A stretch of DNA of 49,482 nucleotides from an uncultured Planctomycetaceae bacterium (GTDB lineage Bacteria > Planctomycetota > Phycisphaerae > UBA1845 > UTPLA1). This document shows positions 3,401 to 21,263 of the stretch, in pieces. The notes under the pieces were generated by a model. It was not told where the DNA came from and did no database searches. It saw only the letters and a list, made by a program, of their open reading frames with translations. The position numbers and the translations under genes were made by a program. The DNA is taken from NCBI GenBank assembly GCA_964611695.1, contig CAZTAR010000001.1, positions 1-49,482 on the forward strand, written 5' to 3'. Every line of letters begins with the position of its first letter. The first letter of the stretch is position 1.

Positions 3401-6400
3401 CAACCGCATCTGAGAGACGCGCGATTCGTTCGATCGTCCCGTCAGGATCCCTTCTTATGGATTCCTTGAAGTGCTCCTCGCGGGCTGATTCAAGACAGCG
3501 ATCTCTCTCGGAATCATCAAGAGTGTCAAAGGCATCAACGAGCTTCTCGGCACGGGTCAGGTTCCTTCTCGCAACTTGTGATATGTAATCTCCCAACAGT
3601 CCGCATTTGTCGAAGTCGTCCAGCCCGACCAAGAGAGAGGTCACATGGTTCACAGTGATATCTGGAACCGACTCCAGAATCTCCGTCGCGACCATTCGCC
3701 GTTCGAAGGAATCCTCGATCTCCTGGATGATCTTGACGCCGGCATCGAACGACAGCCGTGCTGCCAGCTGAGCCCAAGTGCCCAGTGAATAATCAGGAGA
3801 ATCCTCCTCCAGCCCGCGCCCCTGAGCCCCAACGGCCTCGGCGATGATGGCCAACAGTTCATCTTTGTGTTCTCTGCCAAGTCGCCGGATGGCCGCCCCG
3901 AGCGCCTCTTCGCGCGACCCAGGGTTAGGCAGGGCCCTGATGGCCGCGATCGCCTCTTCCGCCGATATCTCCGGTGCCAACGAGATGTAATGGGAGAGCA
4001 GGCGACCTTGAGCCTCGGGAGTCGGCAGATGCCGGAGCAATGGGAGCGGCGAGGGAATCGCCACAGCCCATTCGGCGGCGGGGGATTCCATGAGATCGGC
4101 ATAGACCGCAGCCATCAGCGTCGCCTTCTCCACCCCTTCCGGCAGCGCGGCGATGGCGGCGATCGTCTCCTCCTTGCTCGCGCGCAACGAGACGCTTATC
4201 AGCGGTTTGACGATCCGCTCGGCGCCGTGGTGAAGTGAAAACCACTCCGCGATCGCTCTTCCAGGAGAGGATTTTGCCAAGTGGACAACATGGAAGAGTG
4301 CCGCATTCGTTGGCAAGCCGGCCGACTCAGGTCCGGTCTTTTGCTCCAGGAGCCATGACCAGACGCGGGCCTGCTCATCGGCGTGTGGGATGGCGGCACT
4401 CATGGCCAACCGCTCGAGAAAGTCCTGGAGGGCACTCTCGCGATCCTCTTCTGGAATCGCCGTGAGCATGTCCGGCAGCGGGCGCAGAAGGTCTAACGCG
4501 GCACGGCGATGACCCTGCGAGAGCAGCGCGAGAACCACCTCCGTGACCGACGACAGATCCTCATGCAGATCACCTAAGGCCTGCAGGAGGACGCATGCTG
4601 CGCGGGTGTCCTGCCTGGCCGCGCGCGGTACGACGTAGAGGCGGATGAACCTCTTCGTGCGACGGCCCAGCGATTCCCCGCGTGCGGCACACGAGTTCGT
4701 CAGGACCTTGATGTCAATTGGTTCACCCTCAACGAAGCTCAATGCCGAGACCATAACACCGAGGTTCTTGACCGCATCTGACTCCCGGTTCGCACATCGT
4801 TCCCACTCCCTGCGGGCGATCTCCAAGCCTTGCCTGGGGGAGGTTTCTGCGACCCGAACTGCGCAAATATGCATGGCCAGCGTTCGGCCCGCGTGTTCCT
4901 CCAGCAAGTCAAGGCTGCTTGACAATTGCTCCCAGAAGGCCTGTGGGGGGGCGAATGGATGCAGTCGAGTACATACCTCGCAGATCCGTACTGCCGTTTT
5001 CTCGGAGGCTTGCAAGTGGGCGAGGCGGTCGATGAGGGCGATGCCGACGCCAGGATCGCGCGGCCCCACATGCTCCGCGAAGGCCGCGCCGGCCATGAAG
5101 CGCGAGTCCTTTTGCGGAATCCCCTCCACCACATGCCGGGCGAGATCCACGTCCACGTCGGCCAGAGCGCACGCCACTGCCCCTTCATCGTGCCCGGTCG
5201 AGATGTAACCCGGTCTATTCGGCGCCAGGATCGCTGCGATTTCGCCGAAGGCCGCGAGGCGGTACTCCGCCGGGATATCCTGCAGCGATTTAGCCAAGGT
5301 CGAAGTCAGAGAGGCAATCTGCGACAGCGCGGTTTCGGACGGAGTCTCCTCTCGTCTCCCGGCCATTAAGTCTTGAACATCCTGAAGAATCGCCAGATGC
5401 CCTGACAGTAGCCCGAAAGCGGTTTTGAGGTTACTGTCACCAGCCCGCTCGGACCGCTCCTCATCATCGGAAACGCGCACTGTTTCTTGACACTGGTTGA
5501 GGTGCTCCATCGCGCGCCGCAGTAGAACGCGACCTTGTTCAGGGGCGCCGAGGCGATACCAGTTCGTCGCGAGCTTGATACCGCATTGTGTGGCCTGAAA
5601 CGAGTCCATGTTCTCGCTTGCCACGCGCTCAAGGTCCTGCAGTAATCGCCGACCGGCTGCAGGGGGCAAGGTTGTGGCGAGCTTGTTCAACGTCGTGAGC
5701 AGGCTGCGCACACGCTCGTGTCGCCCATCTGCATCTTCGACGTGCGATATTCTCTGCAGAACACCAGTCGTAAGCCGCGATATGATCTGTTCAATCTCCT
5801 GCTCATTCGAGCATAGCCGAATCGCCTCGCCAACGGCGCGGGCCTCGACCACGCCGATCTCACCGTCGGCTACCGAGCCGACTCCATCGCCCTGATAAGG
5901 CGCAGCCGCATTGTTTACTCTGACAGGTTCGGGATCGAGCAGGGCCTTAATGCAATCCGAAAACCGCTCGTCCGGACAGGCTGCCAGCCAGGCTTCAATG
6001 GCATGGAGGGCCCGCAAAAGCGACTCTTCTCTTGGATCCTCCCAATGAAGCTCAAGCAAGAGTGCAATTACAGTCTTCCATTGTGCTTCCGTCGCCTCCA
6101 GGCGCTCAGCAAGCTCAACCAAGCGCTCGAGACGCTGCCTTCGTTCAATGCTCGGCTCAGTTCCGCGTCCGATGGCGGCAATCGCGAGCAATGCATCTCC
6201 TCCCTCGCCCGCAAAGTATTCTCCGGCGGCACGAACTACCTGACGGGACAGCTGCTCCGCTGTATCCAAGTTCAACGGGGCGACTTGCTGCACAAGCAGC
6301 ACGTAGGCCACCACATGCTGGAACTCATCGGCTATGGAATCGGCCAGATCTGCGCATCGTTGGATCAGCTCTGCGGCACAGCTCTCGCTCACAAGACGGA

Positions 6401-7031
6401 CGGCGTACAGGGCGCGGTGAATGTGGTGGGCTCGCTGACCTTCGTTATCCATCCTCGATACGCAATCCAGAAGAGCGTCGGCGATCTCGCGTAGCGCGTC
6501 TTCATGGTCGCTGGAGACGTGGTGAAGGAGCATCGCCAGGATATCGAATGCCTCCCTCGGACTCCGACCGTAGACCGCGTTCGCAATGGCTTCGGAATAC
6601 AGCCCGCGATGCCCCAGGAGAACGACGAGCCCGACCTCGGCCCGGCGCACGCCCTTTTGCCACAACCTCGCACGAAGCCCCAGGCTCATCCCATACCGTT
6701 CGAGGTCGCCGCGGGCCCTGGCCGCCGTGCTGAGCAGGCGGACGTCTTCGAGCACCGGGAACACGGAGCGCAGGTGGACCGCCTTGGCCTGTAGGAATCG
6801 GCCTTCTACCAAGCGGCATAGTCTTTCGTAGTTGGCGACATCCTCGCGGCCCTCGAATAGGTAGGCGGAGAAGTGGTGGAGGGCCTCAGGGTCCCGGTGA
6901 GTTTCCCATTGTTGGTAGCATGCGATCAAGCCGCCGAGATAACTCCGACCGCTCCCATCTCGGCTGTCTTTTCGAAGGACGTGTGAAAAGTAACTCGCGT
7001 CCGCCGGTGGCGAATCGACTGTGGTGGTCAT
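417..7031 (-). CDS. Giant (2204 aa) all-alpha, Ala/Leu/Glu/Arg-rich solenoid-like protein; no enzymatic motif recognised
   Basis: Uninterrupted 6.6-kb ORF. Its ATG (7031-7029) overlaps the TGA of the upstream NTPase gene (ATGA). Composition is typical of HEAT/ARM/TPR-like helical repeats. No P-loop, signal peptide or TM segment seen. Confidence 0.85.
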   Translation of the reverse strand: MTTTVDSPPADASYFSHVLRKDSRDGSGRSYLGGLIACYQQWETHRDPEALHHFSAYLFEGREDVANYERLCRLVEGRFLQAKAVHLRSVFPVLEDVRLLSTAARARGDLERYGMSLGLRARLWQKGVRRAEVGLVVLLGHRGLYSEAIANAVYGRSPREAFDILAMLLHHVSSDHEDALREIADALLDCVSRMDNEGQRAHHIHRALYAVRLVSESCAAELIQRCADLADSIADEFQHVVAYVLLVQQVAPLNLDTAEQLSRQVVRAAGEYFAGEGGDALLAIAAIGRGTEPSIERRQRLERLVELAERLEATEAQWKTVIALLLELHWEDPREESLLRALHAIEAWLAACPDERFSDCIKALLDPEPVRVNNAAAPYQGDGVGSVADGEIGVVEARAVGEAIRLCSNEQEIEQIISRLTTGVLQRISHVEDADGRHERVRSLLTTLNKLATTLPPAAGRRLLQDLERVASENMDSFQATQCGIKLATNWYRLGAPEQGRVLLRRAMEHLNQCQETVRVSDDEERSERAGDSNLKTAFGLLSGHLAILQDVQDLMAGRREETPSETALSQIASLTSTLAKSLQDIPAEYRLAAFGEIAAILAPNRPGYISTGHDEGAVACALADVDVDLARHVVEGIPQKDSRFMAGAAFAEHVGPRDPGVGIALIDRLAHLQASEKTAVRICEVCTRLHPFAPPQAFWEQLSSSLDLLEEHAGRTLAMHICAVRVAETSPRQGLEIARREWERCANRESDAVKNLGVMVSALSFVEGEPIDIKVLTNSCAARGESLGRRTKRFIRLYVVPRAARQDTRAACVLLQALGDLHEDLSSVTEVVLALLSQGHRRAALDLLRPLPDMLTAIPEEDRESALQDFLERLAMSAAIPHADEQARVWSWLLEQKTGPESAGLPTNAALFHVVHLAKSSPGRAIAEWFSLHHGAERIVKPLISVSLRASKEETIAAIAALPEGVEKATLMAAVYADLMESPAAEWAVAIPSPLPLLRHLPTPEAQGRLLSHYISLAPEISAEEAIAAIRALPNPGSREEALGAAIRRLGREHKDELLAIIAEAVGAQGRGLEEDSPDYSLGTWAQLAARLSFDAGVKIIQEIEDSFERRMVATEILESVPDITVNHVTSLLVGLDDFDKCGLLGDYISQVARRNLTRAEKLVDAFDTLDDSERDRCLESAREEHFKESIRRDPDGTIERIARLSDAVEQAEQLKTVLETVETVDHASVGRWHVLLGIVEQWSRSAQSPGEALDYEHIGEIARVAPDIAYDRILTKRTVLGKAEACMRLLEHISTLEHVALLPHTLDGYRRHLEETEHESAELRLLVYNEFRDLLKERIKQWDVETTDAAAPILADGLEVLPGLNGRRDELLLGLLNKVSAGSIDLLFRLYDMMESTAGRSLGRTIMARRLSSDGLEKFMKAQDAGEMRARTAPGRAAAVLGRMVEDALGVSLFPAAEIPEPVSPGATASELFSLILDAYPLLCRLPSAPRHGIRLEICRLLQRVLAPAGHDDSLATIMLRKSGSCEGMKADDAGTALAGLLSSLAGLPEDSGTEEAEAIIQLLTKGDPSQDLPPVFGGGTAPLQASAAHHCVEQLLLRGAEYPGNIPQLVEQLLSAWGRSYPGPDEFFVDSLAMLEEVRAADPRVRLHFGQWLLPWVESTAESAGEEDDDFKRFLPILRVFVASELFLPDYLDDCLQWMSRGLGELIAYVEAGELPKELFQSLTRIGYVLGKMAFLRGCPPEISARLRRPIQEVLLCLAELEYDVNRSTPGKRLTRVVVKSCRSIVEDLDGLRAMGADPNAHSRLRKLRRRRQALIKHLLNTLRSAPWKSTDCAGRRPSQLGGGDEDNTAGETEAVRYLYLLAGCLWKVGLEDCHATPEIVELICRLASAADVTQLENESDLFKVDECFELEMFVRILARVDREGALRFVEATAAHDDEGHDFGLFDELVVDDPAWVFAHVERIGTKDAIGKRVCQLLARMAAESPGTIQDVVKAVQRIMDNHDDWMFRSEISEALGTALAGIGATETGDIRRITPEFWARATIGAAFAKETWKRDPMQALKMIDELELADVRADALVQCAREMSSAGAEVDTLAEVRGLLAACQKLPGERERFKASREALLAAMRLEQRLERVEALDVAYSFLELFASAPPDWLRLAFVVAVPLLAEHLENEQISQIGKSMFSSDCYIDTQVFAVELRGG

Positions 7032-8740
7032 GAACTTAACCCGGCCTTGTCGAGGAAATACTGCCGGAACCGCTCGTGGCAGAAGGTGAATTCCCCGCGA
7101 TGCTCCAACAGGAAGCGACGTATTCCCTGAATAGTCGCCTCAAAGTTAAGGTGATCAAGCCCCTCTACGCAAGAGATCAATGTTGCCCGACTGATGGGCC
7201 CCTTGGCAGTCAGGATGTAACCGAGGACATCACGCTGTTGCTGCCGTTGCGCGCAGCGACTCAAGATCTCGAACTGGGAATCGAGATAGTCGTAGAGGCC
7301 CTTGGGCGTCTCACCGATGTTCTCCGGGCCTATTCTCCCGGCGCGGATGTCCTCGGCCAGGAATCGCAAATAGAATGGATCTCCATCGGTCGTGGCGAGC
7401 AAGGCTCCCACAAACCGTTCGTTCGCCGACCATTCTACGGCATCCCCGCCCGCCTTCCTCAGCAAGGCGGCGACGCCCCCGGAATCGAAGCGATCCAGGG
7501 TGATGGTCAGGGCGATGTCCGAGGCAGTCAAACCGACGTGGCGAACGAAACTGCGATCGCCGATGGTGCGGGCCGAGAACACGACGAATGTGCGCGCCCC
7601 CAGATCATGAGGGAAGAGGCCCTTAAGGAAATTGCGAGTGGGATCAATCTCGTCCACCGCGTCGATGATGACAATCCGGCATGTCTCCGGTGGAAGGGGC
7701 TCTGCCAGCAAGACGAGGTAGGCTGCACGGGGATCGGCTTCTGGGATTCTTTTCTTGGAGGCGGACTTGCGCAGAATCTGCCCGCAGAGATTGCGCAGGA
7801 AGCAGGTCTCGCGGTTCGGATCGAAAAGGACTGTTGTGCCAGAAAGAGACTGGTTGAAGAAGTGGTATGCTGCATGCGGATAGCGTTCGGTCAGTTGGGC
7901 CAATAGCGCAGTCTTGCCGAATCCGGAGGGGCCTTCGACAAAGACATAGGCACCGTCGGAGCTCGAGAGACGGTCATTGATTGTGGTGAGTTCCCCCACT
8001 CGCCCGGCGAATGCCGCAGAGTGGTAGGCGATCGAATCTGCGAAGTGGATCTCCGTCTCGGCTGTAGATGCCCAATCGTCTCGCGGGAGTGGCGGCCGCG
8101 ACTCCTCTCTGTCGCTTGGCTGCCCTTTCTTGGCTGCGGACTGGTTCGAGTCAAACGTAACCGAGTCTGCTCCAGCCGACGCAGAATGACCCATCGGCTT
8201 CCCGCACTGCAACTCTATCTCAGAAGCCATGTTTTCGAGTTCATCGGCACTCTCCACCGGCGCGCGATCGAGCACAATTTGGATCGCCTCGGGAGGGAGA
8301 GCATCCACGTCCACGCACAGCACAACAGGCTCGCCGGGGAGCGTCTTGAAATCGGGGTTGCTGCGGTTGATCAAGAACACGATATTCGATCGGTCGTTGG
8401 CGTCCGTCCCGAACATACCGCCCAACCAGGACGTTGACTTGCTTATCGCGTAGTTCAGCGAGGCGGCCGGACTCCCGTGCCAGCCTTCAACAACAGGAAT
8501 CTTGTCTTCACGCTCATCAGGACAGCGGCGTCCCCACGCCGCTGAGCGAAGCAGAAGAACGGCAAGGGCCTTCACAGCAGAAGTCCACTTGAAAGACCCA
8601 GCCGCATCGGAGCTCGCCCCCACATCATCCCCCCGCACGGCTCGTAGCTGGCGGTCTTTGCCAAGTACGGGGTGCTCAAATGTTGTCTCCACAAGCTGCG
8701 GTGAGGGATTGCTTGTGAACGAGAGCACGAGTCTTTTCAT
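7028..8740 (-). CDS. STAND (NACHT/AAA_16-like) P-loop NTPase with an unknown ~260-aa N-terminal domain and no C-terminal repeat sensor
   Basis: Walker A is VFVEGPSGFGKTALLAQL and Walker B is RIVIIDAVDEID. FVVFSAR, GDPFYLRFLAED (a GxP-like STAND motif) and a terminal winged-helix-like LGYILTAKGPISRATL...FCHERFRQYFL follow. I prefer the start at 8740 (MKRLVLSF), which has GGAGG 7-8 nt upstream, over the track start at 8773. Confidence 0.85.
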   Translation of the reverse strand: MKRLVLSFTSNPSPQLVETTFEHPVLGKDRQLRAVRGDDVGASSDAAGSFKWTSAVKALAVLLLRSAAWGRRCPDEREDKIPVVEGWHGSPAASLNYAISKSTSWLGGMFGTDANDRSNIVFLINRSNPDFKTLPGEPVVLCVDVDALPPEAIQIVLDRAPVESADELENMASEIELQCGKPMGHSASAGADSVTFDSNQSAAKKGQPSDREESRPPLPRDDWASTAETEIHFADSIAYHSAAFAGRVGELTTINDRLSSSDGAYVFVEGPSGFGKTALLAQLTERYPHAAYHFFNQSLSGTTVLFDPNRETCFLRNLCGQILRKSASKKRIPEADPRAAYLVLLAEPLPPETCRIVIIDAVDEIDPTRNFLKGLFPHDLGARTFVVFSARTIGDRSFVRHVGLTASDIALTITLDRFDSGGVAALLRKAGGDAVEWSANERFVGALLATTDGDPFYLRFLAEDIRAGRIGPENIGETPKGLYDYLDSQFEILSRCAQRQQQRDVLGYILTAKGPISRATLISCVEGLDHLNFEATIQGIRRFLLEHRGEFTFCHERFRQYFLDKAGLSS

Positions 8741-8979
8741 CTTCGGCCTCCAGCCTGACGCCCTTCCAGACACGCGGGGGCTACCTCAACCCGGCTTCTG
8801 AATCCACTTCTGAATCTGAAACCACTTCGGCATCGCTCGGCGACTCATGTCTGGGTGGTTCCTGCTTTACTTGCCGCTAGCGGTTCAGAAACGCCGGTGC
8901 GCAAGACAGCATCAAGGAGTGTCTTGACCATGATCGCCGATGAAATGGCCCAGGCTAGACGAACAAGAGGAACTCGACA

Positions 8980-10692: not shown

Positions 10693-10909
10693 CCCGACGG
10701 CCGATGCAACGACGGACCCCGCCGCCGATCAAAGACCACAGCGTTCCACTCCTCGGAGGATCGCCTTTCTCATCGGCGATTGGGCAAGAGCTGTGATCAT
10801 CATCACGGCCTGGGCCACTGCCTTGGCGGTGGCGGCAACCGTTGCGGTTCTGGTGCTCAAATGCCTGCTCTTCATCATTAATCTTGGCCAACAGGCCCTA
10901 TTTCCCTAG
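10682..10909 (+). CDS. Small membrane protein (one or two TM helices)
   Basis: Hydrophobic stretch IAFLIGDWARAVIIITAWATALAVAATVAVLVLKCLLFII. Tight spacing to both neighbours. Confidence 0.4.
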   Translation: MANDPTADATTDPAADQRPQRSTPRRIAFLIGDWARAVIIITAWATALAVAATVAVLVLKCLLFIINLGQQALFP

Positions 10910-10917
10910 CAAGAACC

Positions 10918-11364
10918 ATGGCACAGCCCAACCTGAATGCAGCGCCGATCACTCGGTCGGTGGAGACCATCATCCGAGGCCCTGACGGGATGGAAATCCT
11001 GCGCGTCTGCGCCAAGCACATCACCATCCGCCATCCCGACGGCCGCATCGAGCAACGAAAACTCAACGAGAACATCGTCCTCGTCGACGGCACCAACTGG
11101 AATGCCGGCATGCTCTACGGCCCGAATCCCATTGAGATTGGTGCGTGTCATCTCTGTCGACGACCGCCGTACGTGTTTCCCCTGCATGATCCGCCATGCG
11201 ACGGACTTCTCCGCCTGTCCAATGCCGAAACCTGCGAATGCGGAGCGCTTTGCTGCGGCAAGCACCGCCGCCTGTGTTCAGATGGCGAGTATCGTTGTAC
11301 TCGATGCGCCCGATGGTGGTTCTGGCTGGAACTGCTCAGCAGGATCTTCTTTTGCAGGTGGTAG
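10918..11364 (+). CDS. Cys-rich (multi Zn-ribbon-like) protein with a Trp/Phe-rich hydrophobic C-terminus
   Basis: C-terminal half reads CHLCRR...PPCDG...CECGALCCGKHRRLCSDGEYRCTRCARWWFWLELLSRIFFCRW. The stop lies 6 nt before the ATPase ATG. Confidence 0.6.
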   Translation: MAQPNLNAAPITRSVETIIRGPDGMEILRVCAKHITIRHPDGRIEQRKLNENIVLVDGTNWNAGMLYGPNPIEIGACHLCRRPPYVFPLHDPPCDGLLRLSNAETCECGALCCGKHRRLCSDGEYRCTRCARWWFWLELLSRIFFCRW

Positions 11365-11370
11365 CCCGCC

Positions 11371-13479
11371 ATGAAAAACACGGCGCAAGCCAGGCAGCTT
11401 TGGCGGGTCATCACGGACCTGAATCTCGATGCCCGCCACTCGGAACTTGCTGATTACAAGTTGCTGATCGAACAGGGCCTCCTCGAAGATGACATCGCAC
11501 AGGACATCATGCTTCAAATCGATCCTCTGATCCGGCACGCGCAGGATCACCCCAATCCACTGAAGCGACCACCGAGCCAGGAAGAGCTGTACGGCGACGA
11601 GAGTCCCTGCCTCGAGCTGGGCTCGATCCTGGATGCCTCCGAGATTCGTTTCGGACTGCGGATCCGGGACCGCCCCAGGAATGTGCTGATTGCCGGGAAC
11701 GCCGGCTCCGGAAAAACAACGACCATGTATAACATCGTGGAAGGCGTCCGTGCCTTCAACCTCGCCAACCCAAACCGATTCGTCAGCCTTGTCATCAAGG
11801 ACACCAAGCTCGACTACCGCCGACTTGCCGAGGCTCTTCGCAGCTCCCTGGTTCATCTCAGTGTGCACGATCCCGGAACTCAGTTGTCACTGGCCGCGCC
11901 CGAAGGTGTGCCAGCGAACGTCTGGATCAATCTCCTGTCAGCGATCTGGTGCTCGCGGAGTGGCATAGTCTCTGGCTGGACCGCCTTTGCGAATTTGATC
12001 CGTTGGGTGCTTGCGCAACTGACCCCGAAACCCGGCACCCAACTGCTGTGGCCGAGCCTGAAGCTGCTCTTGGAGATCATGCAAGCCTCGCCGAAGCAAC
12101 TGTGGGGATCCAAACAGGGCTACGAGGAGACGCTGATCGGCGTACTCGAAGCGGCGGCGCAGGCCACGGAGCTGTTCGACTGTTTCGGCGGTCTGGACCT
12201 CGAGCGGGACATCATCCGGCCCAAGAAACACCTCCTGCTTGAGATGCCCAACGTCGCGCCCGCGTGGCTCCGGCAGTTCATCCTTGATCTTCTCATCGCA
12301 CAGTTGCTCTTCGGCAGGATCCACCGCCGCCAGAAAACCGACCGCACGGAGCTGATGCTCATGCTGGATGAAATGGATCAGGACGCACGCGCAGACGCCG
12401 ATCTCCGTTTTCCGGATCAAATGTCACCGCTGGCCCAATTGCTCCGGCTCGGGCGAGAGTTCGGCATCATGGCGGTCATCGGTCTGGGCAGACTGAATAA
12501 CGCAAGTCACTACGTCCAATCCGAGCCCCTTTACCACTTGATCTTCAATCAATCGGACGCGCACTCGGTTGTGGCAGCGCGGAACACGCTCTGCCTACCG
12601 CCGGAGGCGGATCAGATGTTTCCGTCCTTGACGCCAGGCCATTGCATCGCCCGCGAAGCGCAGGGCCCCTGGTCGCATCCGATGCTGGTGAAGATCGATC
12701 ACCGGCCGCTGGGAGGATCAACACCCGTACCGGCATACGACACCCACCCGATGATTCCCGCGCAGAGCCTGGCCGAACTTCCCGAACTCCGGAAGGCCCT
12801 CGAAGCACTCATTAGCGAAAAACGCAAGACCAACTTGCGACAAAGCAGGAGCAAGTCCGCTGAGCTATCCGAACACGCCCACAATCTCCTGAATACGGCA
12901 TCGCTTCATCCCTGGGCGCCTGCCGCCACACTCTGGAGGCGTTCTGGCAAAACCCCATCTCCGAGGATTCAGAAGGCTGTCCGGCGGGAACTTCTTCAAG
13001 CGGGCCTAGCCGATTCGGAAGAAGTTCGTTTGGGAAGCACAAACGTGCTGCTCTATTCCATCACAACTCAGGGTTGGGCGTATCTCAGGCGACAAGGCCC
13101 GAAGCGCACGGGTCGCGGATCAATCTCCCACCAACACATCAGTCATTGGATTGCCCTGTGCGGAGAAAAGGATGGGCTCACCGCTTCCTGCGAATTCGTG
13201 GTGCCCGACACCAATCACGCAGTCGACTGCGCTGTTGAGATTGAGCCCGGCGTCTGCAACGTATTCGAGGTTGTCGTCACATCGAAGGACAACATCCTGC
13301 AGCATCTCACGACATTGGCCACGTGCGAGTGTGTTCGCACGATCGCCATCGTGTGCCTGCAGAAGCGACAAATGCGGGCCATTCGACGCTCGCTTGAGCC
13401 TGAGCCGGTGGTCAAGAACTTAGGCGACCGGCTGCAATGGCAGCTTGCTGAAACCTACATGCGGAGGTGTTTCTCATGA
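11371..13479 (+). CDS. HerA/FtsK/T4CP-like P-loop ATPase with a C-terminal winged-helix plus possible PD-(D/E)xK-like nuclease module
   Basis: Walker A is RNVLIAGNAGSGKTTTMYNIV and Walker B is ELMLMLDEMDQDA. The GREFGIMAVIGLGRLNN block is typical of HerA/FtsK-type ATPases. The tail has a wHTH-like stretch (KAVRRELLQAGLADSEEVRLGSTNVLLYSITTQGWAYL), then ISHWIALCGEKDGL...VDCAVEIEPGVCNVFEVVVTSKDN. No TM segment. Confidence 0.85.
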   Translation: MKNTAQARQLWRVITDLNLDARHSELADYKLLIEQGLLEDDIAQDIMLQIDPLIRHAQDHPNPLKRPPSQEELYGDESPCLELGSILDASEIRFGLRIRDRPRNVLIAGNAGSGKTTTMYNIVEGVRAFNLANPNRFVSLVIKDTKLDYRRLAEALRSSLVHLSVHDPGTQLSLAAPEGVPANVWINLLSAIWCSRSGIVSGWTAFANLIRWVLAQLTPKPGTQLLWPSLKLLLEIMQASPKQLWGSKQGYEETLIGVLEAAAQATELFDCFGGLDLERDIIRPKKHLLLEMPNVAPAWLRQFILDLLIAQLLFGRIHRRQKTDRTELMLMLDEMDQDARADADLRFPDQMSPLAQLLRLGREFGIMAVIGLGRLNNASHYVQSEPLYHLIFNQSDAHSVVAARNTLCLPPEADQMFPSLTPGHCIAREAQGPWSHPMLVKIDHRPLGGSTPVPAYDTHPMIPAQSLAELPELRKALEALISEKRKTNLRQSRSKSAELSEHAHNLLNTASLHPWAPAATLWRRSGKTPSPRIQKAVRRELLQAGLADSEEVRLGSTNVLLYSITTQGWAYLRRQGPKRTGRGSISHQHISHWIALCGEKDGLTASCEFVVPDTNHAVDCAVEIEPGVCNVFEVVVTSKDNILQHLTTLATCECVRTIAIVCLQKRQMRAIRRSLEPEPVVKNLGDRLQWQLAETYMRRCFS

Positions 13480-13784
13480 ACGTGAAGGCATTGCAGATTG
13501 GCCTCATTCTGATCCTGATGCTTGCCGTGCTCACATGGATGCGGTCGGAGGGCAGGTACGACTTCGATATCCGGTCCGTGATCCCGTTCATGCACGGCGA
13601 GGTGACGCTGTACGACTGGGGCGGATTGGCGATCATTCTCTTCGGCCTCTGGGGACTTGGCCGGCTTCGGGACAACGTGCCGCGGTCCGACAGGGAACGG
13701 GATTCTGACTTCGACGTCGTCGGACGAGGCGAACAAGGGCGTCCCATTGACCCCGAAACGGATGGCCGTGGGTACCGGTTGTAG
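13476..13784 (+). CDS. Small two-TM membrane protein
   Basis: The ATG at 13476 overlaps the ATPase stop (ATGA). Sequence MNVKALQIGLILILMLAVLTW...GGLAIILFGLWGLG, followed by a charged tail. Confidence 0.5.
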   Translation: MNVKALQIGLILILMLAVLTWMRSEGRYDFDIRSVIPFMHGEVTLYDWGGLAIILFGLWGLGRLRDNVPRSDRERDSDFDVVGRGEQGRPIDPETDGRGYRL

Positions 13785-13944
13785 CGTGCGATGCACGGCA
13801 CCCGCCTCTCCGGTCTCCCGAGAGGATTCGTCAGCCTCTTGTCACCGGGATGGTGCCCGGAAGATCACTCCCGAGTCATTGAGAAGGCAACGGGATTCGC
13901 TGGAAGTTGAGTAAGTTGTACGTGGCTTTGAAGGAGATCGACCC

Positions 13945-14247
13945 GTGCGCAACGAACTGAGGCCAGGGCCTCGCTTTCAGATGCAACAAGGGCCCGTCCT
14001 TGAACGACCCAAGCCGCAACGGCGGCGGCCACGACCGTTCCGGTGGTACTTCCTTGCGCTGCCTTTGCTCGTGTTCGCAATCGGCTGGGTCGCTCAGGGC
14101 ATCCATCCAGCCTGCACCTGGGATGAAGTGATGGACCAACTTGACATTAGGGATCGCGAGGCGTTCACGCAGATGGCCGCACTCGGGGTTCTGGTCACGT
14201 CAGGGCTTGCGGTTCTGCGCGTGCTGCGCGGGCCTGGCGAGAGATAG
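13945..14247 (+). CDS. Small membrane protein with an Arg/Pro-rich N-terminus
   Basis: GTG start with AAGGAG 8-9 nt upstream. TM segments are FRWYFLALPLLVFAIGWVAQGI and MAALGVLVTSGLAVLRVL. Confidence 0.45.
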   Translation: MRNELRPGPRFQMQQGPVLERPKPQRRRPRPFRWYFLALPLLVFAIGWVAQGIHPACTWDEVMDQLDIRDREAFTQMAALGVLVTSGLAVLRVLRGPGER

Positions 14248-14336
14248 ATGCTTCCATCTTCCCGCTTGGATTATGCCAGAATCTGAGTGAAACAAAGTAA
14301 TGAACCGTGTCGAACGACGGAGACAAGGAGACAAAC

Positions 14337-15068
14337 ATGAAACATCCAGAGAACACACCATGCCTCCAGTCCGGAACTAGTGAGGAGGATGATCCGTCCG
14401 CAAGAGTTGTTTCCCACGAAAGCGAGGAACCCGAATCGCTACTCACCAAAACTGAGGATCTCTTCGCTGACAACGATCCTGAAGATGGTCTGTTCGGCCA
14501 TATCAGTTCCGTCCTCGGCGATCTTGGCGAGCGACTGACGCAGTGCCAAACCAAGATCGAGTCGATCAGTACGGAAGTGCAGCGCATCAAGACGGACGAT
14601 GAAGTTCTCAACGAGATGAACCACCGCTGTCAGATTTTGTCCGAGCAGTTCCACGAACGAGAAGTACTCAATCCAATCCTACTGATCTTGATCGGCGTGG
14701 CCGATCGTTGTCGCACTCTCGAGTCGGGAATAGAGAGTGTTGTTGCCAAACTGGAGGCCAAGCCGCGCTCATTCAAAAAGACGCTCCTTCGACAGTTGCT
14801 GGACGCCAGACGGGCGGACAGGGTCGAGATCGAGAGCGCACTCGCCGACCTTGGCGTCCAGAGCTACGAGCATCCAGGAGGAGTATTCACATCCTCGCTC
14901 CAGACTTGCAAGGGCAGTATTTCGTGCAGCGATTTTGCTCAGAAAGGGCGAATCGCCAAGCGGCTGCGCCCTGGCTATCGACGAAACGAGCACATCATCC
15001 GGCGTGAATGCGTGGCGGTGTTCGTCACGCGTGAAGCAAAACCTCTATGCGAAGGAGAAGAACAGTGA
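14337..15068 (+). CDS. GrpE-like nucleotide-exchange-factor homolog (divergent)
   Basis: ATG at 14337 with AAGGAG 6 nt upstream. Acidic N-terminus, then a long coiled-coil region. ILLILIGVADRCRTLESG matches the GrpE LLpvlDnleRAl block. C-terminal beta-domain signature is ADLGVQSYEHPGGVF...GRIAKRLRPGYRRNEHIIRRECVAVFV (compare GrpE qkGYklgdRvlRpAmVvV). Confidence 0.65.
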   Translation: MKHPENTPCLQSGTSEEDDPSARVVSHESEEPESLLTKTEDLFADNDPEDGLFGHISSVLGDLGERLTQCQTKIESISTEVQRIKTDDEVLNEMNHRCQILSEQFHEREVLNPILLILIGVADRCRTLESGIESVVAKLEAKPRSFKKTLLRQLLDARRADRVEIESALADLGVQSYEHPGGVFTSSLQTCKGSISCSDFAQKGRIAKRLRPGYRRNEHIIRRECVAVFVTREAKPLCEGEEQ

Positions 15069-16615
15069 TCGCATTCGACATTGGTACTGAGCGTTCAAAG
15101 GCCGCTTGTGTAAACCGGCTTGGCAAGCCAGAGATGATCCCCAACGCCCGAGGTGAGCCCTTTACCCCCAGCGTAGTGTGCCTCTCCGAAGGTGGTCCGC
15201 CGCTGGTGGGAAGGGATGCGCTTGAGCAAGGATACGTCCATCCGGAGAGAACAGCCCGGAACTTCAAGCTCAAGCTGGGAACGACTGAGAACATCCTGAG
15301 GAACGGCAAGACCGTGACCGCCACAGACGCCACGGCAGAACTCGTCGGTCGCTTGAAGGAAAATGTCGAAAGCCATCTGGGTGTTCGGCTTGAAGAACTC
15401 GTAGCCACGTGTCCCGCCAACTTCCGGGACGCGGCCAAACAGGCCCTCCTTGAGGCGTTCGATCGCCATGGCATCAAAGTCTCCCAGCTTGTCCACGAGC
15501 CCACGGCAGCCGGCCTCGCCTACGCTCTTGATAAGTCGGGTAGCACCCTTCACATTGCAGTCTATGACTTTGGAGGGGGAACGTTCGACGTCTCTATCCT
15601 GAAGGTCGAAGGTCCCCAGATAAGCGTTCTCGCAACAGAGGGTGTTGCCCAACTTGGGGGCAACGACATCAACGCCTGCCTGCGTCGCCACATCCTGAAT
15701 GAGATCAAGGTGCGCACCGGCGAAGACATTACCCTGGGACAAGATTCTCTATTCGACATGGATCTTGATACGCGCGTGGAAGCCGCCAAGCTCTCACTCG
15801 GCACAAGGCCACAAGTGCCTGTCGCGATCCACCGCAATGGAAATCAGCTGATCGTGGACATCAGCCAGGATCAACTTCACCGAATGATCGATCCACTCAT
15901 TCGACAAACGCTCGACGCACTCGATCACGCCATCGATGCAGCCGGGCTTAAGGCGGATCAGGTCCAGGACATCCTAATGGTAGGTGGTACTTCTCGCCTC
16001 AAGCACATTCAGGGCCAGGTGGCTAAGCACATCGGTAAGGCGCCGAAAATCGACATCGACCCCGACAAGGCTGTAGCCTACGGCGCCGCCATCGCCAGCC
16101 TCAATGAGTTGTACCGCCAGGGCAAGACTGCCACCATCCGTGGCCAGATCATCCCTTCACCGGACCTGTTCGTACGAGAGGTCACTGCACACGCAGTCGG
16201 TTGCTGTGTCGTGGACACATCCGGCCCCCAGCGGCGCATGCTCAACGCAGCGATCATTGCAAAGAACACACAGATCCCCTGCCGCAAGACCGATCGGTTC
16301 TACCTCGAGCGAGCGGATCAGGCGCACGCCAAGGTTGAGATCCTCCAAGGTGAGCCGGATGCGGACCGAGATGAATGCCTCGTCATCGGCGAGCTTCTCT
16401 TGGAGAACCTACCATCCGAACCCAATCGCTCGGCCCGCATCCAAATCGAGTACTCCATCGACGGCAATGGCATGGTCACGGCCACGGCAACCGACATTGT
16501 GAGCGGACAGATCAGGACTGTCTCCGTGGACTACAAGAGGGATGCCTCTTCACCAGGCGCATCGACGAACACCGGCGGCAAAACAACTGTCACCATCAAT
16601 AAGGAGGTCGCCTGA
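15065..16615 (+). CDS. Hsp70-family ATPase, non-canonical and lacking the helical lid (HscC-like length)
   Basis: Motifs VIAFDIGTERS, VHEPTAAGLAY, YDFGGGTFDVSIL, MVGGTSRLKHIQ and DPDKAVAYGAA. Beta-sandwich SBD motifs are REVTAHAVG, VEILQGE and IEYSIDGNGMVTATATD. The protein ends about 516 aa with a short Ser/Thr/Gly tail. The GTG at 15065 has AAGGAG 7 nt upstream and overlaps the upstream stop (GTGA). An alternative ATG lies at 15047. Confidence 0.9.
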   Translation: MIAFDIGTERSKAACVNRLGKPEMIPNARGEPFTPSVVCLSEGGPPLVGRDALEQGYVHPERTARNFKLKLGTTENILRNGKTVTATDATAELVGRLKENVESHLGVRLEELVATCPANFRDAAKQALLEAFDRHGIKVSQLVHEPTAAGLAYALDKSGSTLHIAVYDFGGGTFDVSILKVEGPQISVLATEGVAQLGGNDINACLRRHILNEIKVRTGEDITLGQDSLFDMDLDTRVEAAKLSLGTRPQVPVAIHRNGNQLIVDISQDQLHRMIDPLIRQTLDALDHAIDAAGLKADQVQDILMVGGTSRLKHIQGQVAKHIGKAPKIDIDPDKAVAYGAAIASLNELYRQGKTATIRGQIIPSPDLFVREVTAHAVGCCVVDTSGPQRRMLNAAIIAKNTQIPCRKTDRFYLERADQAHAKVEILQGEPDADRDECLVIGELLLENLPSEPNRSARIQIEYSIDGNGMVTATATDIVSGQIRTVSVDYKRDASSPGASTNTGGKTTVTINKEVA

Positions 16616-17346
16616 TGTACGACAACGCCGTACGGAGGACACTCACGAGTGTGCAGTCGATGCCTGTAGCTCTGGTGATGATGATCGTCTCAGGTATCAC
16701 GCGCTTCCTCGACGAACTCTTTGGCCAGATCGATGGTTGTGGGGAGGCGGAAGAACTGGGATATCGAGGTCGACCAGACGGCCCCTGCGATTGCGTGGTT
16801 CTTATCGATGCTTCACCTTCGATGATGGAGGCGGATTGGAAGCCGACGCGCTTGCGTGGAGCCAAGGACGCAGCCAAGGCCTATGGCAAGAGGATTGCCC
16901 GGAATGACCCGGAATCTCGCATTGCCATCGTCGCCTATGCGGCATTCGCTCGAAAGGCCATTGGGCTCACGGCCGCCCACCAGTGTGCCAAGCTCTGCGA
17001 CGCGATTGATCAGATTGACACATTCAGTGCCACGAACATCACATCGGCCCTGAAGAAAGCCAATCGCCTCCTCCGGAAAGGACGTGGAAACCACCAGGTC
17101 ATCCTGCTGACGGATGGTCACCACAACTTCGGTGTTTCCCCGCGACGAGCCGCTGCAAAGCTGAGGCGGCACGCGATCCTCGAATGCGTAGGCATCGGCG
17201 GCCGGGAGGGAGTTGACGAGGAGCTTCTCAGGGCCATCGCTTCGACCAGGCGAGATGGGACAAAGCGATACCGCTGGATTGGTGACCCCGAAGACTTGAT
17301 CGAACACTTCGAGAATCTCGCAGAAAGGATTACTAGACAGGCATGA
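16615..17346 (+). CDS. von Willebrand factor A (vWA) domain protein with a complete MIDAS and a hydrophobic N-terminal helix
   Basis: VVLIDASPSMM (DxSxS), SATNITSAL (Thr) and VILLTDGHHN (Asp). N-terminal MPVALVMMIVSGITRFL. AAGGAGG lies 7 nt upstream, and the start overlaps the Hsp70 stop (TGATG). Confidence 0.85.
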   Translation: MYDNAVRRTLTSVQSMPVALVMMIVSGITRFLDELFGQIDGCGEAEELGYRGRPDGPCDCVVLIDASPSMMEADWKPTRLRGAKDAAKAYGKRIARNDPESRIAIVAYAAFARKAIGLTAAHQCAKLCDAIDQIDTFSATNITSALKKANRLLRKGRGNHQVILLTDGHHNFGVSPRRAAAKLRRHAILECVGIGGREGVDEELLRAIASTRRDGTKRYRWIGDPEDLIEHFENLAERITRQA

Positions 17347-17639
17347 TCGTCACAACCAACATTTTGGCCTTTCCGCTTGTTGTCCTGATCTGGCTCGTCG
17401 ACACGTACGTTTGCCTGCTGGGTGCGCGGATGTGCTTGCAGCACTCCTCTGCGGATTGGGCGCGCCGTGTGACGCTGCTTCTGCGGGAAGCCACTGATCC
17501 CGTGATGAAGGGCGTACACCGTCGTCTATCCACTTGGCGTGGCAGGACTGTGCCCTCGTGGGTCACGTGGCTTTCCGTGATCCTGGGAGCACTGCTCCTG
17601 CGTCACCTGCTCATTCTTCTTCTCCTCCGCATGAACTGA
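17343..17639 (+). CDS. YggT/Ycf19-like small integral membrane protein
   Basis: ATGA overlap with the vWA gene. Two TM helices flank REATDPVMKGVHRRLSTW...VPSWVTWLSVIL, which resembles the YggT motif TePlLrPiRr..P...DlSp. Confidence 0.55.
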   Translation: MIVTTNILAFPLVVLIWLVDTYVCLLGARMCLQHSSADWARRVTLLLREATDPVMKGVHRRLSTWRGRTVPSWVTWLSVILGALLLRHLLILLLLRMN

Positions 17640-17790
17640 GGAGCCGAGGAATGAAACGCCCAACCAGACAATGCGACAGCCCCACACGAGCAGCATGTAG
17701 GCCGTGCCTGGTTGGCTCCTGTGTCGCCACGAGAAGACCCACGATGATCAAGCAGTTCCAAATGACCTTCAGCACAAAGGGAGAAATCCA

Positions 17791-18075
17791 ATGTCCGAAG
17801 AGAATACCAAGCAACGCCCTGTACATGAAATAAAGACGGCTGGCGGGATTTCTGTTGCCGTTTGGCAACGCATAGAACTCGAAGGAGATGCCCGCGAGAC
17901 CCGCCGCTTCTCATTCAGTATCCAGAAACGCTACAAGGATGACGCAGGCGAGTGGCGAAATAGCAGCACGTATTTTCCCAACGACTTGCCGCGCCTCCGC
18001 CTCGCGATTGACAAGGCCTTCGAGTATGTCTCACTGAAGGAGAGTCAGACCAAGGGCGACGCGGAAGCCGCATGA
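17791..18075 (+). CDS. Small conserved protein (94 aa), possibly PC4/YdbC-like ssDNA-binding fold; paralog of the left-edge gene
   Basis: ATG with GGGAGA 6 nt upstream. Sequence MSEENTKQRPVHEIKTAGGISVAVWQRIELEGDARETRRFSFSIQKRYKDDAGEWRNSSTYFPNDLPRLRLAIDKAFEYV. The pattern is shared with the 1..236 product. The fold assignment is only pattern-based. Confidence 0.6.
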   Translation: MSEENTKQRPVHEIKTAGGISVAVWQRIELEGDARETRRFSFSIQKRYKDDAGEWRNSSTYFPNDLPRLRLAIDKAFEYVSLKESQTKGDAEAA

Positions 18076-18104
18076 GCCCAACAGCCTTTCCTGTGTTTGT
18101 GGAG

Positions 18105-18136
18105 GCCCGCTGGTTCTCTCGGCCAGCGGGCTTTTT
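18105..18136 (+). terminator. Rho-independent terminator closing the plus-strand operon
   Basis: Stem GCCCGCTGG (18105-18113), 9-nt loop, CCAGCGGGC (18123-18131), then TTTTT. It begins 30 nt after the stop of the small gene. Confidence 0.75.
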
Positions 18137-18503
18137 CATCTCCCGTTCTCCGCCAGAAACTCCAAGCGTGGCCGATGACGTTCCTGTTCTCTATAACGCA
18201 GTTCCTTCTTATCCAGACACCTCAATCACTGCCTCGACAACGATCTTCTCGCACCAACCACACTGGTCACTCAGTTCGTTGTCGTGCATGCCCCGCCCAC
18301 AGCATCGGCAACGCTTCACTGTTCTCGCGCCTCTGCCGGCTTCAACATACGCACCACCTTCGCCTTCCGGCGCTCCCATTGCACATCCCATGGGTACATC
18401 AGTTGCCCTGTCTTTCTTCGTTCTTCTTTCATATTCTTTCCTCAGAGTCCACCTCTTCGGGCAGGCTCAGCCTCGTTCAGAGGGCTGAGCCTTCGATTGG
18501 ACA

Positions 18504-18577: not shown

Positions 18578-18640
18578 AAAAGGATGAGTATTATTCACGG
18601 AGAGATCTGAGGCAGCTGTGATGTAGGAGGAAGGACCAAC

Positions 18641-19714: not shown

Positions 19715-19999
19715 TTGAACTCCGAGGATTCAAATGTACGGACTAACAGCAAGCTGCTTACGCCTGCAGAGGCGGCTCAGCAGCTGCGCGTAACGCCGGA
19801 ACACGTGCGGTCGTTGATCCGGCTGGGGCAACTCGCGGCGGTGAACATCGGCACGGGTGCAAAGCGACCGCTGTACCGAATTGCCCCCGAGACGCTGCGA
19901 GAGTTCATATTGTACCGCGGACGATCAGGACCGCGGGCCCGACCAAGGCGTCCTAAGCAACGACCGTTCGTCCGTGATCATTTCCCGGATCTGAGATGA
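19715..19999 (+). CDS. Excisionase/MerR-type helix-turn-helix DNA-binding protein
   Basis: LLTPAEAAQQLRVTPEHVRSLIRLGQLAAVNIGTGAKRPLYRI is a classic excisionase-family HTH. TTG start, so the exact start is uncertain. It converges on and overlaps the integrase 3' end. Confidence 0.6.
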   Translation: MNSEDSNVRTNSKLLTPAEAAQQLRVTPEHVRSLIRLGQLAAVNIGTGAKRPLYRIAPETLREFILYRGRSGPRARPRRPKQRPFVRDHFPDLR

Positions 20000-21083
20000 T
20001 TTCCTCACCCAGCAGCTTGGTCCTTGCTTTCATCACGGCCGCGTCCACTGCGGCATCCGGCGTGTGCGTGTAGGTCACTTGCTGCTGGAGCTGGCTGTGC
20101 CGCATGAACCGCCTCTGCACGTGCGGATTGGCCACGAGCGAGATTGCTGTGGAGGCACAGTGCCTCAGCCTGTAAAAACCATAGCAAGGCACACCAGCTT
20201 TCGCACACAGCTTACGGAATTGTTCGGCGACCGCATCCTTGCTCCAGGGTCGCCAGAATTTGGTGATGAACAGCCGGCCTCCGTCCGATCGGCTCCAGCC
20301 CCGCCTGGCCATCCGTGCAATCAGCTCACCCCGATGCATCCTCAAGCCATCAATCGCCCGGAGTGTCTCGGGCCAGAGCGCGAAAGTCTGGCAAACACCG
20401 GTTTTGCTTCGCGGCAGCGTCGCACGGCTAGCGTAGAAATCTGTCCATTCTACGTCGTGGATGTCCTTCGGGCCGAAACCACAATTGATGCCGAGGAGGA
20501 CCATCAGTCGCATCTGGATATCGCCACATGCCAAAAGCCTGCCGAGGTGCTTTTCAGTGTAGAGCTTCTTGTTGCCGCGGGTAAGTCCGTGCTTCGGGTC
20601 GTTCCTTACACGCTTCAGCTTGGGGGCGTGATCGATGATGTCGGCGTCCTCCGCAAACGTGAACAGAGCTCTAACCGCACTGAGGTAGTGGTTGATGGAT
20701 TGGGCCGAATAGCCTCGCCTTTTCAAGGACAACTTCCAAGTCGCGAACATCTCGACAGTGAAATCTCCAGCCCGCAAGCGGGGATGGTCCTTGAGGAACC
20801 TACCCAGCCAATCTCTGTAGCCTCGCCGCGTGTCGGCGGGATTTCGCCAATTGGCTTGCTGGGCCTCCAAGAAGCGGTTGGCAAGTTCCTTGCCAGAAAT
20901 CACAGCTGGAACTGCCGAGGGCTTCTCCGAAGCCCCAAGCTTCAAGGACATTCGATGGTATTTCTCAAGGGCATCTTCTCGATTGGCACCCAGGTAAATC
21001 CGCCTTCCGCTGCGGGTCACGTAGTGCTGGCCCGTAGGCTTGTGGAACGAGAGGGGATTCGACGCAGGTCGACTTCGTGGCAT
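19953..21083 (-). CDS. int: Tyrosine recombinase / phage-type integrase
   Basis: SAM-like N-terminal domain (YLSAVRALFTFA). Catalytic region has PRSKTG, YRLRHCASTA and FMRHSQLQQQVTYTH (the Tyr). I take the start at MPRSRPAS (21083). The track ORF start at 21296 would read through the tRNA gene. Confidence 0.9.
   Translation of the reverse strand: MPRSRPASNPLSFHKPTGQHYVTRSGRRIYLGANREDALEKYHRMSLKLGASEKPSAVPAVISGKELANRFLEAQQANWRNPADTRRGYRDWLGRFLKDHPRLRAGDFTVEMFATWKLSLKRRGYSAQSINHYLSAVRALFTFAEDADIIDHAPKLKRVRNDPKHGLTRGNKKLYTEKHLGRLLACGDIQMRLMVLLGINCGFGPKDIHDVEWTDFYASRATLPRSKTGVCQTFALWPETLRAIDGLRMHRGELIARMARRGWSRSDGGRLFITKFWRPWSKDAVAEQFRKLCAKAGVPCYGFYRLRHCASTAISLVANPHVQRRFMRHSQLQQQVTYTHTPDAAVDAAVMKARTKLLGEEIISDPGNDHGRTVVA

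Positions 21084-21187: not shown

Positions 21188-21263
<76 letters not shown>

Follow-up and report, generated by a model that had tools for sequence, protein, structure and literature searches.

Integrative elements of Planctomycetota with a shared backbone carry a GrpE–Hsp70–vWA trio in an exchangeable slot

We analyzed a 49,482-nucleotide stretch of DNA from an uncultured Planctomycetaceae bacterium (GenBank assembly GCA_964611695.1, contig CAZTAR010000001.1), referred to here as the window, in which one operon carries three consecutive genes for a putative GrpE-like exchange factor, an Hsp70 without the helical lid, and a stand-alone vWA protein. Comparison with related loci (designated by L numbers) revealed that this GrpE–Hsp70–vWA trio fills a swappable slot of a conserved integrative-element backbone, the same position being occupied in sister elements by kinase/phosphatase or ThiF/JAB modules. 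We hypothesize, with a probability of about one half, that the trio is a chaperone-driven counterpart of the TerY-P phosphorylation switch and acts in biological conflict. The three genes are as follows.

14337..15068, + strand: GrpE-like nucleotide-exchange factor of 243 amino acids, starting at an ATG with a ribosome-binding site (family profile, AlphaFold2, Foldseek).
15065..16615, + strand: lid-less Hsp70 of 516 amino acids, with a GTG start (Pfam HSP70, E = 1.7e-82).
16615..17346, + strand: stand-alone vWA protein of 243 amino acids with a complete metal ion-dependent adhesion site (MIDAS) (Pfam VWA, PF00092, E = 6.6e-16).

The order GrpE-like protein, Hsp70 of ~500 amino acids and vWA protein of ~230-250 amino acids was found in 13 of 13 independent loci, down to an Hsp70 identity of 42%. 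An earlier reading made from the sequence of the window alone (hereafter the sequence-only reading) had described a four-gene set, with a small YggT-like membrane protein as its fourth member, and had asked whether it is a conserved cassette across phyla. The three-gene part of this set held in every locus, while the YggT-like gene turned out to belong to the backbone, and the distribution centers on Planctomycetota: the loci and Hsp70 relatives with an organism label all come from Phycisphaerae/Planctomycetota, except for one Hsp70 cluster (P0027) labelled Candidatus Woesearchaeota archaeon. The loci from ENA, JGI and Logan carry no organism label.

Searching with the ATPase encoded upstream of the trio, instead of with the Hsp70, retrieved the sister elements in which the slot holds other genes. 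Across the element family, the backbone exists in two types. Type A, to which the window belongs, encodes in order a 94-amino-acid protein and a Cys-rich protein, then the HerA-type ATPase, to which a C-terminal domain is fused, and after it a transmembrane (TM) protein and a 2-TM protein, followed by the slot, the YggT-like protein and a protein of ~90 amino acids. In type B, the C-terminal domain of the ATPase is encoded by a separate gene of ~150 amino acids. In the window, the operon comprises these genes besides the trio.

10408-10692, + strand: conserved protein of 94 amino acids, first operon gene, kept in related loci.
10682-10909, + strand: TM protein of 75 amino acids, second operon gene (hydropathy and comparison of loci).
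10918..11364, + strand: Cys-rich backbone protein of 148 amino acids, upstream of the ATPase in all type-A elements.
11371..13479, + strand: HerA-clade P-loop ATPase of 702 amino acids, backbone (weak Pfam DUF87, FtsK and TrwB matches).
13476..13784, + strand: small membrane protein of 102 amino acids, backbone (N-terminal TM segment, acidic tail), translationally coupled to the ATPase gene.
13945..14247, + strand: 2-TM membrane protein of 100 amino acids, constant 5' flank of the slot (hydropathy).
17343..17639, + strand: 2-TM YggT-like protein of 98 amino acids, constant 3' flank of the slot (hydropathy).
17791..18075, + strand: conserved soluble protein of 94 amino acids, last operon gene, placed after the slot in all variants.

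Among the type-A elements, the slot was occupied by the Hsp70 trio in six cases, by a PP2C–FHA–Ser/Thr kinase module in three (L016, L019 and L027), by a TerY-type vWA–PP2C–kinase–kinase module in three (L017, L025 and L026) and by a ThiF–small protein–JAB module in two (L018 and L021). The PP2C–FHA–kinase genes are followed by a vWA gene and the YggT-like gene in L016; the contigs of L019 and L027 end before this point. The vWA protein of L017 matched the TerY model of PADLOC (E = 4.9e-19). The ThiF/JAB modules contain no vWA gene and come with ADP-ribosylglycohydrolase genes. Genes with ArdC-N and Replic_Relax domains also occur in related elements.

What surrounds the slot is constant. The two upstream TM proteins precede every type of slot module: homologues of the 13945..14247 protein stand before Hsp70, kinase and ThiF modules alike, and a homologue of the 13476..13784 protein with 65% identity is present in the kinase variant L016. 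On the other side, YggT-like homologues come after the kinase modules in L016 and L017 and after the ThiF/JAB module in L021, so that by hhalign (99.3%, 97.8% and 98.1%) the protein is present after Hsp70, kinase and ThiF/JAB modules. In the window, L016, L017 and L021, the YggT-like gene is found at a distance of -4 to +13 nucleotides from the last gene of the module, the two genes overlapping or lying next to each other. Since the two TM proteins and the YggT-like protein also flank kinase and ThiF modules, the small membrane proteins are backbone genes that go with the HerA-type ATPase, and not outputs specific to the Hsp70 cassette, as had been proposed for them. We also considered the YggT-like protein as the partner of the vWA protein and rejected this idea, as it is found 3' of the ThiF/JAB module of L021, which has no vWA. 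Hydropathy agrees with the claim that two small TM proteins precede the four-gene set. As for the YggT-like label, the topology is compatible with YggT, with TM helices at residues 1-19 and 77-95, but the resemblance stays below threshold: the window protein scored 17.7 bits against a YGGT (PF02325) cut-off of 27, and only two of ten family members matched this Pfam model, at E ~1e-3 (best E = 0.0012).

The C-terminus of the 702-amino-acid ATPase consists of a helical region and a domain with an alpha-beta-beta-beta-alpha-beta order (residues ~575-702), which carries the invariant residues D619 and E633 and is homologous to the separate ~150-amino-acid genes of the type-B elements L005, L006, L008, L013 and L015. 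An AlphaFold2 model of the ATPase (pLDDT, the predicted score in the local distance difference test, 88.9) had the DndH C-domain, SIR2/HerA, HerA-DUF4297, VirB4 and HerA as its best Foldseek matches, and in PADLOC the protein matched HerA at E = 0.066 and mad8 at E = 2.6e-6. Tentatively, the C-terminal domain resembles a restriction-endonuclease-like fold. A more specific assignment as a PD-(D/E)xK nuclease was tried; the matches were weak (1y88, E = 0.045; CoiA_nuc, E = 0.11), and we did not take it beyond a tentative label.

We then examined the three proteins of the trio. The Hsp70 is composed of a nucleotide-binding domain, a linker, a beta-sandwich substrate domain and a low-complexity tail of ~25 amino acids. 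Its alignment to E. coli DnaK covers only DnaK residues 5-501, of which residues 389-501, after the hydrophobic linker, correspond to the beta-sandwich; the helical lid is not present. The catalytic residues equivalent to DnaK D8, K70 and E171 and the GGGTFD motif are retained in the protein and in the family consensus, and so are, in the substrate domain, the F426 equivalent and the ILQGE motif. The G32 loop, which contacts GrpE, is also retained. Relative to DnaK residues 75-106, the protein shows a deletion of ~24 residues. The absence of the lid extends to its relatives: the consensus of 107 family members stops at about residue 500-505, ending in '...VDYKKGIKP', and 97 of the 120 best Hsp70 relatives have a length of 500-509 amino acids. 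Thus, judged from these alignments, the Hsp70 is a member of a distinct clade of ~500 amino acids that keeps the ATPase residues and the peptide-binding beta-sandwich and lacks the lid, and the lid-less state is a family trait. These observations agree with what the sequence-only reading had claimed for this protein, namely the loss of the lid and the retention of the nucleotide-binding motifs and the beta-sandwich.

The same reading held that this is not a housekeeping dnaK operon, and several results point the same way. The scores against the NCBIfam DnaK equivalogs were far below their cut-offs (NF001413, 281.7 bits for a cut-off of 648; TIGR02350, 280.1 for a cut-off of 822.55), identity to canonical DnaKs was ~31-33%, and the genes lie in an island with an integrase and a tRNA gene. 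No second Hsp70 was found on the 49-kb contig.

In the GrpE-like protein, the N-terminal ~50 residues are disordered; two helices, of which the first is long, come next, and the C-terminus forms a beta domain. Its score against Pfam GrpE (PF01025) was 22.1 bits, for a gathering score of 25.8; a precomputed PF01025 match was present in seven of nine homologues, and a profile built from 13 sequences of the family matched GrpE chains in the PDB (3a6m, E = 5.2e-5; 8gb3, E = 6e-5). The AlphaFold2 model reached a pLDDT above 90 over residues 60-230, and its top 11 Foldseek matches in the PDB were all GrpE, the next match having E = 0.27. The sequence-only reading required the 243-amino-acid protein to model as GrpE, and the model indeed indicates that it is a true but divergent GrpE. 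The family is sizeable, since a search of 1.84 billion representative proteins retrieved 142 clusters (at 50% identity) with E<=1e-30, a number that rises to 678 with E<=1e-10.

In the vWA protein, the MIDAS residues D65, S67, S69, T140 and D167 are invariant across 13 homologues, and the family has a C-terminal motif of its own, KRYRWIGD..L..HF..LA. The intact MIDAS described in the sequence-only reading was therefore borne out. The hydrophobic N-terminal helix, described alongside it, did not hold as a family feature: it is not conserved and is absent in L005, and we rejected it as a membrane anchor of the family. The vWA protein of the window did not match the PADLOC TerY model; it belongs to the same family as the vWA protein of the kinase variant L016 (hhalign 99.5%, E = 3e-23). 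The N-terminal extension of these proteins is variable. Within it, at residues ~25-45 (16615-16770) of the window protein, there is a short recurring motif, basic and hydrophobic, that follows the pattern R-F-L/M-x-D-x-hydrophobic, with examples such as RFLDELF, RFLNDPL and RFMADPL in the Hsp70-associated vWA proteins; the kinase-associated vWA protein of L016 has a zinc ribbon at this position. It is possible that this motif is a candidate client site for the Hsp70.

The eleven genes between 10408 and 18075 are all encoded on the + strand and overlap or are spaced by no more than 160 nucleotides, the largest gap being 160, in agreement with the sequence-only reading. The translational coupling that it described for the four genes from the GrpE-like to the YggT-like gene was also visible at the junctions. 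The ATG of the GrpE-like gene at 14337 has an AAGGAG 7 nucleotides upstream, as does the GTG of the Hsp70 gene at 15065, which overlaps the GrpE-like stop in a GTGA. The vWA start at 16615 overlaps the Hsp70 stop (TGATG) and is preceded by AAGGAGG, and the YggT-like gene starts at 17343 within an ATGA shared with the vWA stop. A further ATGA, at 13476, joins the stop of the ATPase gene to the start of the first small TM gene. Downstream of the last gene lies one more feature.

18103..18136, + strand: hairpin resembling an intrinsic terminator, with a T run after it (visible in the sequence itself).

This GC-rich hairpin, GCCCGCTGG...CCAGCGGGC, is followed by T5 at ~18103-18136 and corresponds to the terminator that had been placed at 18105..18136. 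A simple terminator scan did not report it, the loop probably exceeding the 8-nucleotide limit of the scan. A sigma-70 consensus scan of window positions 8700-20000 found no promoter-like sites, for 3.1 expected from shuffled sequences. This is consistent with non-canonical promoters in the lineage and is uninformative about where the operon starts.

Regarding the remaining backbone proteins, the Cys-rich protein contains multiple CxxC-like pairs and a hydrophobic C-terminal tail, and had no Pfam match above threshold. An 'HPD' tripeptide occurs in it (10918-11364), without similarity to J domains. The protein encoded by the last operon gene had no match in Pfam or the PDB; its classification as PC4-like was considered and found no support in the Pfam and PDB profile searches. 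An inverted paralogue of this gene is present at 3-260 on the - strand.

The integrase-bounded nature of the island, as the sequence-only reading had described it, was confirmed at its downstream end, where excisionase, integrase and tRNA-Pro genes were found. The features outside the operon are the following.

417..8773, - strand: divergent left arm and second variable slot, with a STAND-like NTPase and a protein of 2204 amino acids.
18641-19627: radical-SAM protein, between the operon terminator and the excisionase gene.
19715..19999, + strand: excisionase-like protein with an HTH_17 domain (Pfam HTH_17, E = 6.8e-8).
19953..21083, - strand: tyrosine integrase (Pfam Phage_integrase and SAM-like domain matches).
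21188..21263, - strand: tRNA-Pro(TGG) (ARAGORN).

The integrase open reading frame as listed, 19953-21296 with a TTG start, crosses the tRNA-Pro gene at 21188-21263. The true start is probably the Met at ~21083, which gives 376 amino acids, a length equal to that of the L009 integrase (61% identical); an integrase fragment in L018 is 82% identical. The tRNA-Pro gene is the probable integration target. No direct repeat of its 3' end was found in the window, by exact k-mers of at least 14 or by blastn with a word size of 7. The radical-SAM protein shows sub-threshold similarity to the Rv2578c/PA0069 families and weak similarity to 'rSAM mobile pair protein B'. Its gene is absent from the related loci compared by tblastn and is therefore probably extra cargo.

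On the left arm, the STAND-like NTPase (7028-8773; AAA_16, 35 bits, and a NACHT-like match) overlaps the start of the gene for the 2204-amino-acid protein (417-7031), which had no Pfam match. The corresponding place in L001, L012 and L014 holds STAND proteins together with repeat proteins (WD40, TPR, HEAT), and the pairs found in related elements include NB-ARC with TPR, NPHP3_N-like with WD40, and NACHT with HEAT. Instead of a STAND NTPase, L016 carries a WD40-containing kinase and an ECF sigma factor. This second variable region ends in the inverted paralogue of the last operon gene. The smallest element, L015, spans ~9 kb with ~12 genes, bordered by host genes on one side and a tyrosine integrase on the other, and the trio makes up as much as a third of it. 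In the element of the window, we found no genes for a relaxase, a capsid or type IV secretion. Searches for a viral origin were also negative: the scan of IMG/VR with the GrpE-like profile was empty, PHROGs gave no meaningful matches, and tblastn against a phage collection and the PLSDB plasmids returned only canonical DnaK, with no more than 33% identity.

Several described systems resemble parts of this arrangement. The closest is the TerY-P triad of a TerY-type vWA, a PP2C and a Ser/Thr kinase, which PMC11090510 presents as a mobile cassette and a proposed phosphorylation switch; the same paper, citing Anantharaman 2012 and Gao 2020, notes TerY-P-like modules reported as stand-alone anti-phage systems. 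The trio shares with it the layout of a three-gene mobile module built around a stand-alone MIDAS vWA and a reversible switch of protein state, and TerY-P-type modules occupy the very same slot in the sister elements L017, L025 and L026. In contrast to TerY-P, the window operon encodes no PP2C or Ser/Thr kinase in Pfam and NCBIfam scans, the switch consisting of Hsp70 and GrpE, and its vWA protein comes from another vWA subfamily, the one shared with the PP2C–FHA–kinase variant. A second relative is found among the predicted conflict systems centered on GAP1-N2 GTPases, in which HSP70 with GrpE, and a kinase with PP2C and a stand-alone vWA, are alternative themes (PMC7159879; Kaur, Burroughs, Iyer, Aravind 2020). 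Here too, a dedicated Hsp70 with its own GrpE stands inside a predicted conflict system. However, the operon proteins contain no GTPase, FNIII or DnaJ domain (Pfam and NCBIfam scans), the trio has neither GAP1 nor a DnaJ or TPR fusion, and the vWA goes with the Hsp70 theme and not, as in PMC7159879, with the kinase theme. The setting differs as well, with a Planctomycetota host, an integrase element and a HerA-type partner NTPase.

An ATP-driven chaperone is also paired with a MIDAS vWA protein in the MoxR AAA+/vWA pairs (ternary systems, RavA–ViaA type), which are proposed to set thresholds for effector activation. In the trio, this place is taken by Hsp70 and its GrpE exchange factor and not by a MoxR AAA+ ring; no MoxR, AAA_3/AAA_5 or VMAP was found among the operon proteins, whose only P-loop ATPase is the HerA-type one. 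The folds of the nucleotide-binding domain, linker, beta-sandwich and GrpE are those of DnaK–GrpE–DnaJ and HscA/HscC. The window Hsp70 nevertheless differs from DnaK in having no lid, no J protein and scores that fall short of the equivalog thresholds, and from HscA and HscC, which function without GrpE (PMC8215388), in that its lid-less clade keeps a private GrpE. CnuD of the Type III CoCoNuT systems is likewise an Hsp70 unit for nucleotide and substrate binding in defence-type operons with vWA, TerY-P and HerA/VirB4-like ATPases, but its ATPase motifs are described as degenerate, and it has HEAT repeats and McrBC as partners while lacking a GrpE (PMC11090510); the window Hsp70 has intact catalytic motifs and a GrpE, and McrB and McrC are absent. 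Finally, SIR2–HerA/Nezha, HerA–DUF4297 and DndH are structurally closest to the 702-amino-acid ATPase and, like it, carry or adjoin a nuclease-like domain. The similarity of the ATPase to these defence HerA proteins in sequence is marginal, however, and neither SIR2 nor DUF4297 is present.

These nearest described systems are all predicted, and each fails at least one defining feature of the trio. Consequently, the trio is best described as a variant of chaperone/vWA and TerY-P-type switch modules. Full-text literature searches turned up neither a module of Hsp70, GrpE and vWA nor the element family. The suggestion that the module was uncharacterised is thus upheld as far as these searches go, with the qualification that it has precedents in the themes of PMC7159879 and the TerY-P triads of PMC11090510.

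Our model suggests that the ATP cycle of the Hsp70, paced by its private GrpE, would control the vWA protein in the way that phosphorylation does in TerY-P-type modules. The Hsp70/GrpE cycle would hold or reset the vWA protein, whose MIDAS site would bind an acidic residue of a partner, and the state of this switch would decide whether the constant neighbours, that is, the YggT-like protein and possibly the ATPase with its nuclease-like domain, are engaged. The role might be an activity against phages or mobile elements, or the exclusion of competing elements. As a guess at the trigger, proteins of an invader could compete for the lid-less Hsp70 and so free the vWA protein by titration, in analogy to DnaK and sigma32. 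We consider a conflict role the most likely because the other slot occupants are recognised or predicted conflict modules and because STAND NTPases occupy the second slot. For the same reasons, namely the TerY-P-like and ThiF/JAB modules in the same slot and the adjacent STAND NTPases, the conflict or defence half of the function proposed in the sequence-only reading gains support; nothing points to the other half, envelope stress. It is doubtful, but conceivable, that the Hsp70/GrpE cycle, Ser/Thr phosphorylation and ubiquitin-like conjugation (ThiF/JAB) are interchangeable plug-in regulators of one output set, which would then consist of the HerA-type ATPase with its nuclease-like domain and the three small membrane proteins.

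A number of observations weigh against a conflict switch. The argument for it is one of location and analogy. In PADLOC-DB 2.0.0, the GrpE-like, Hsp70 and vWA proteins had no match at E<=0.1, and the trio genes encode no effector with an obvious toxic activity. The DnaK residues R167 and N170, which contact the J domain, are Q and H in the window Hsp70, and its family does not conserve them. No J domain turned up in Pfam scans of the operon and window proteins, and phmmer with J-domain queries found none over the six-frame open reading frames of the window and L001-L015; the claim that the cluster has no J-domain protein thus stood. All the loci compared come from uncultured metagenome assemblies. 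The link to the HerA block varies: L009 and L014 have this block inverted relative to the trio, and L012 has none near it. Finally, given the strong conservation of the trio and its share of L015, it may equally serve the life cycle of the element.

In this last case, the trio would remodel or activate proteins for replication, excision or DNA transfer of the element, or act as the gate of a HerA-type apparatus for DNA translocation that is associated with the membrane and includes the small TM proteins. The kinase and ThiF modules would then be alternative regulators of this apparatus. In a similar way, the host DnaK/DnaJ/GrpE machinery remodels or activates lambda P and the P1 or F Rep proteins. 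The trio always adjoins the excisionase and integrase genes and usually the HerA-type ATPase, it is translationally coupled with the ATPase and TM genes in one operon, and it accounts for about a third of the 12 genes in the minimal L015. The VirB4 match of the ATPase, the ArdC-N and Replic_Relax genes of related elements, and the nature of the slot occupants, which are all regulatory, protein-modifying modules and not toxins, would also fit. However, the backbone exists with unrelated slot contents, such as the ThiF/JAB modules of L018 and L021 that have no vWA, and the trio is therefore dispensable for the backbone. The reports of TerY-P-type modules as defence systems also speak against it, and neither the missing relaxase, capsid and secretion genes nor the empty IMG/VR scan and the purely canonical DnaK of the phage and plasmid collections favor a role in transfer or propagation. 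We regard a life-cycle function as the main rival explanation, although of rather low probability.

The inverted or missing HerA blocks of L009, L014 and L012 would fit a trio that is a self-contained defence cassette, carried as cargo in a hotspot and without any functional tie to the ATPase or the flanking membrane proteins, which would be core genes of the element. From its second variable slot with STAND NTPases, the element is seen to be a platform for cargo, and in literature that PMC11090510 cites, TerY-P functions as a stand-alone system. Two observations speak against such autonomy: in every module type, the YggT-like gene lies right at the last gene or overlaps it, and no effector can be recognised within the trio itself. 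We consider this explanation unlikely. Far less probable still is that the trio represents an ordinary stress-chaperone paralogue, an additional DnaK/GrpE pair that serves in heat or envelope stress and came to lie on the island by chance. The Hsp70 has kept its catalytic and peptide-binding residues, and complex bacteria commonly possess further paralogues derived from DnaK (PMC13580251). Nevertheless, its DnaK equivalog scores are less than half of the cut-offs, it has no lid and no DnaJ, its J-domain contacts are altered, it is strictly linked to the vWA gene and mobile-element genes in all 13 loci, and kinase or ThiF modules can take the place of the trio.

Truncated paralogues derived from DnaK occur in many complex bacteria, and what they do is put forward as an open question in a 2026 review (PMC13580251). 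The locus analyzed here gives one such family defined partners, a private GrpE and a MIDAS vWA protein, as well as a genomic role, in the form of a swappable slot, with kinase/phosphatase and ThiF/JAB modules as natural comparators. Testable questions follow from this: whether an Hsp70 cycle replaces phosphorylation, what the vWA protein senses, and which roles the ATPase and the membrane proteins play. Should the slot modules prove to be plug-in regulators of one output set, the Hsp70 version would be the first case in which a dedicated chaperone cycle directly gates an immune or exclusion system, with a MIDAS vWA protein as the sensor it acts on, and one family of truncated 'DnaK derivates' would have a concrete function. 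The small integrative elements themselves constitute a new family for Planctomycetota, and little is known of the mobile elements of this phylum. If the conflict role is true, the locus would add a chaperone-gated mechanism to prokaryotic immunity.

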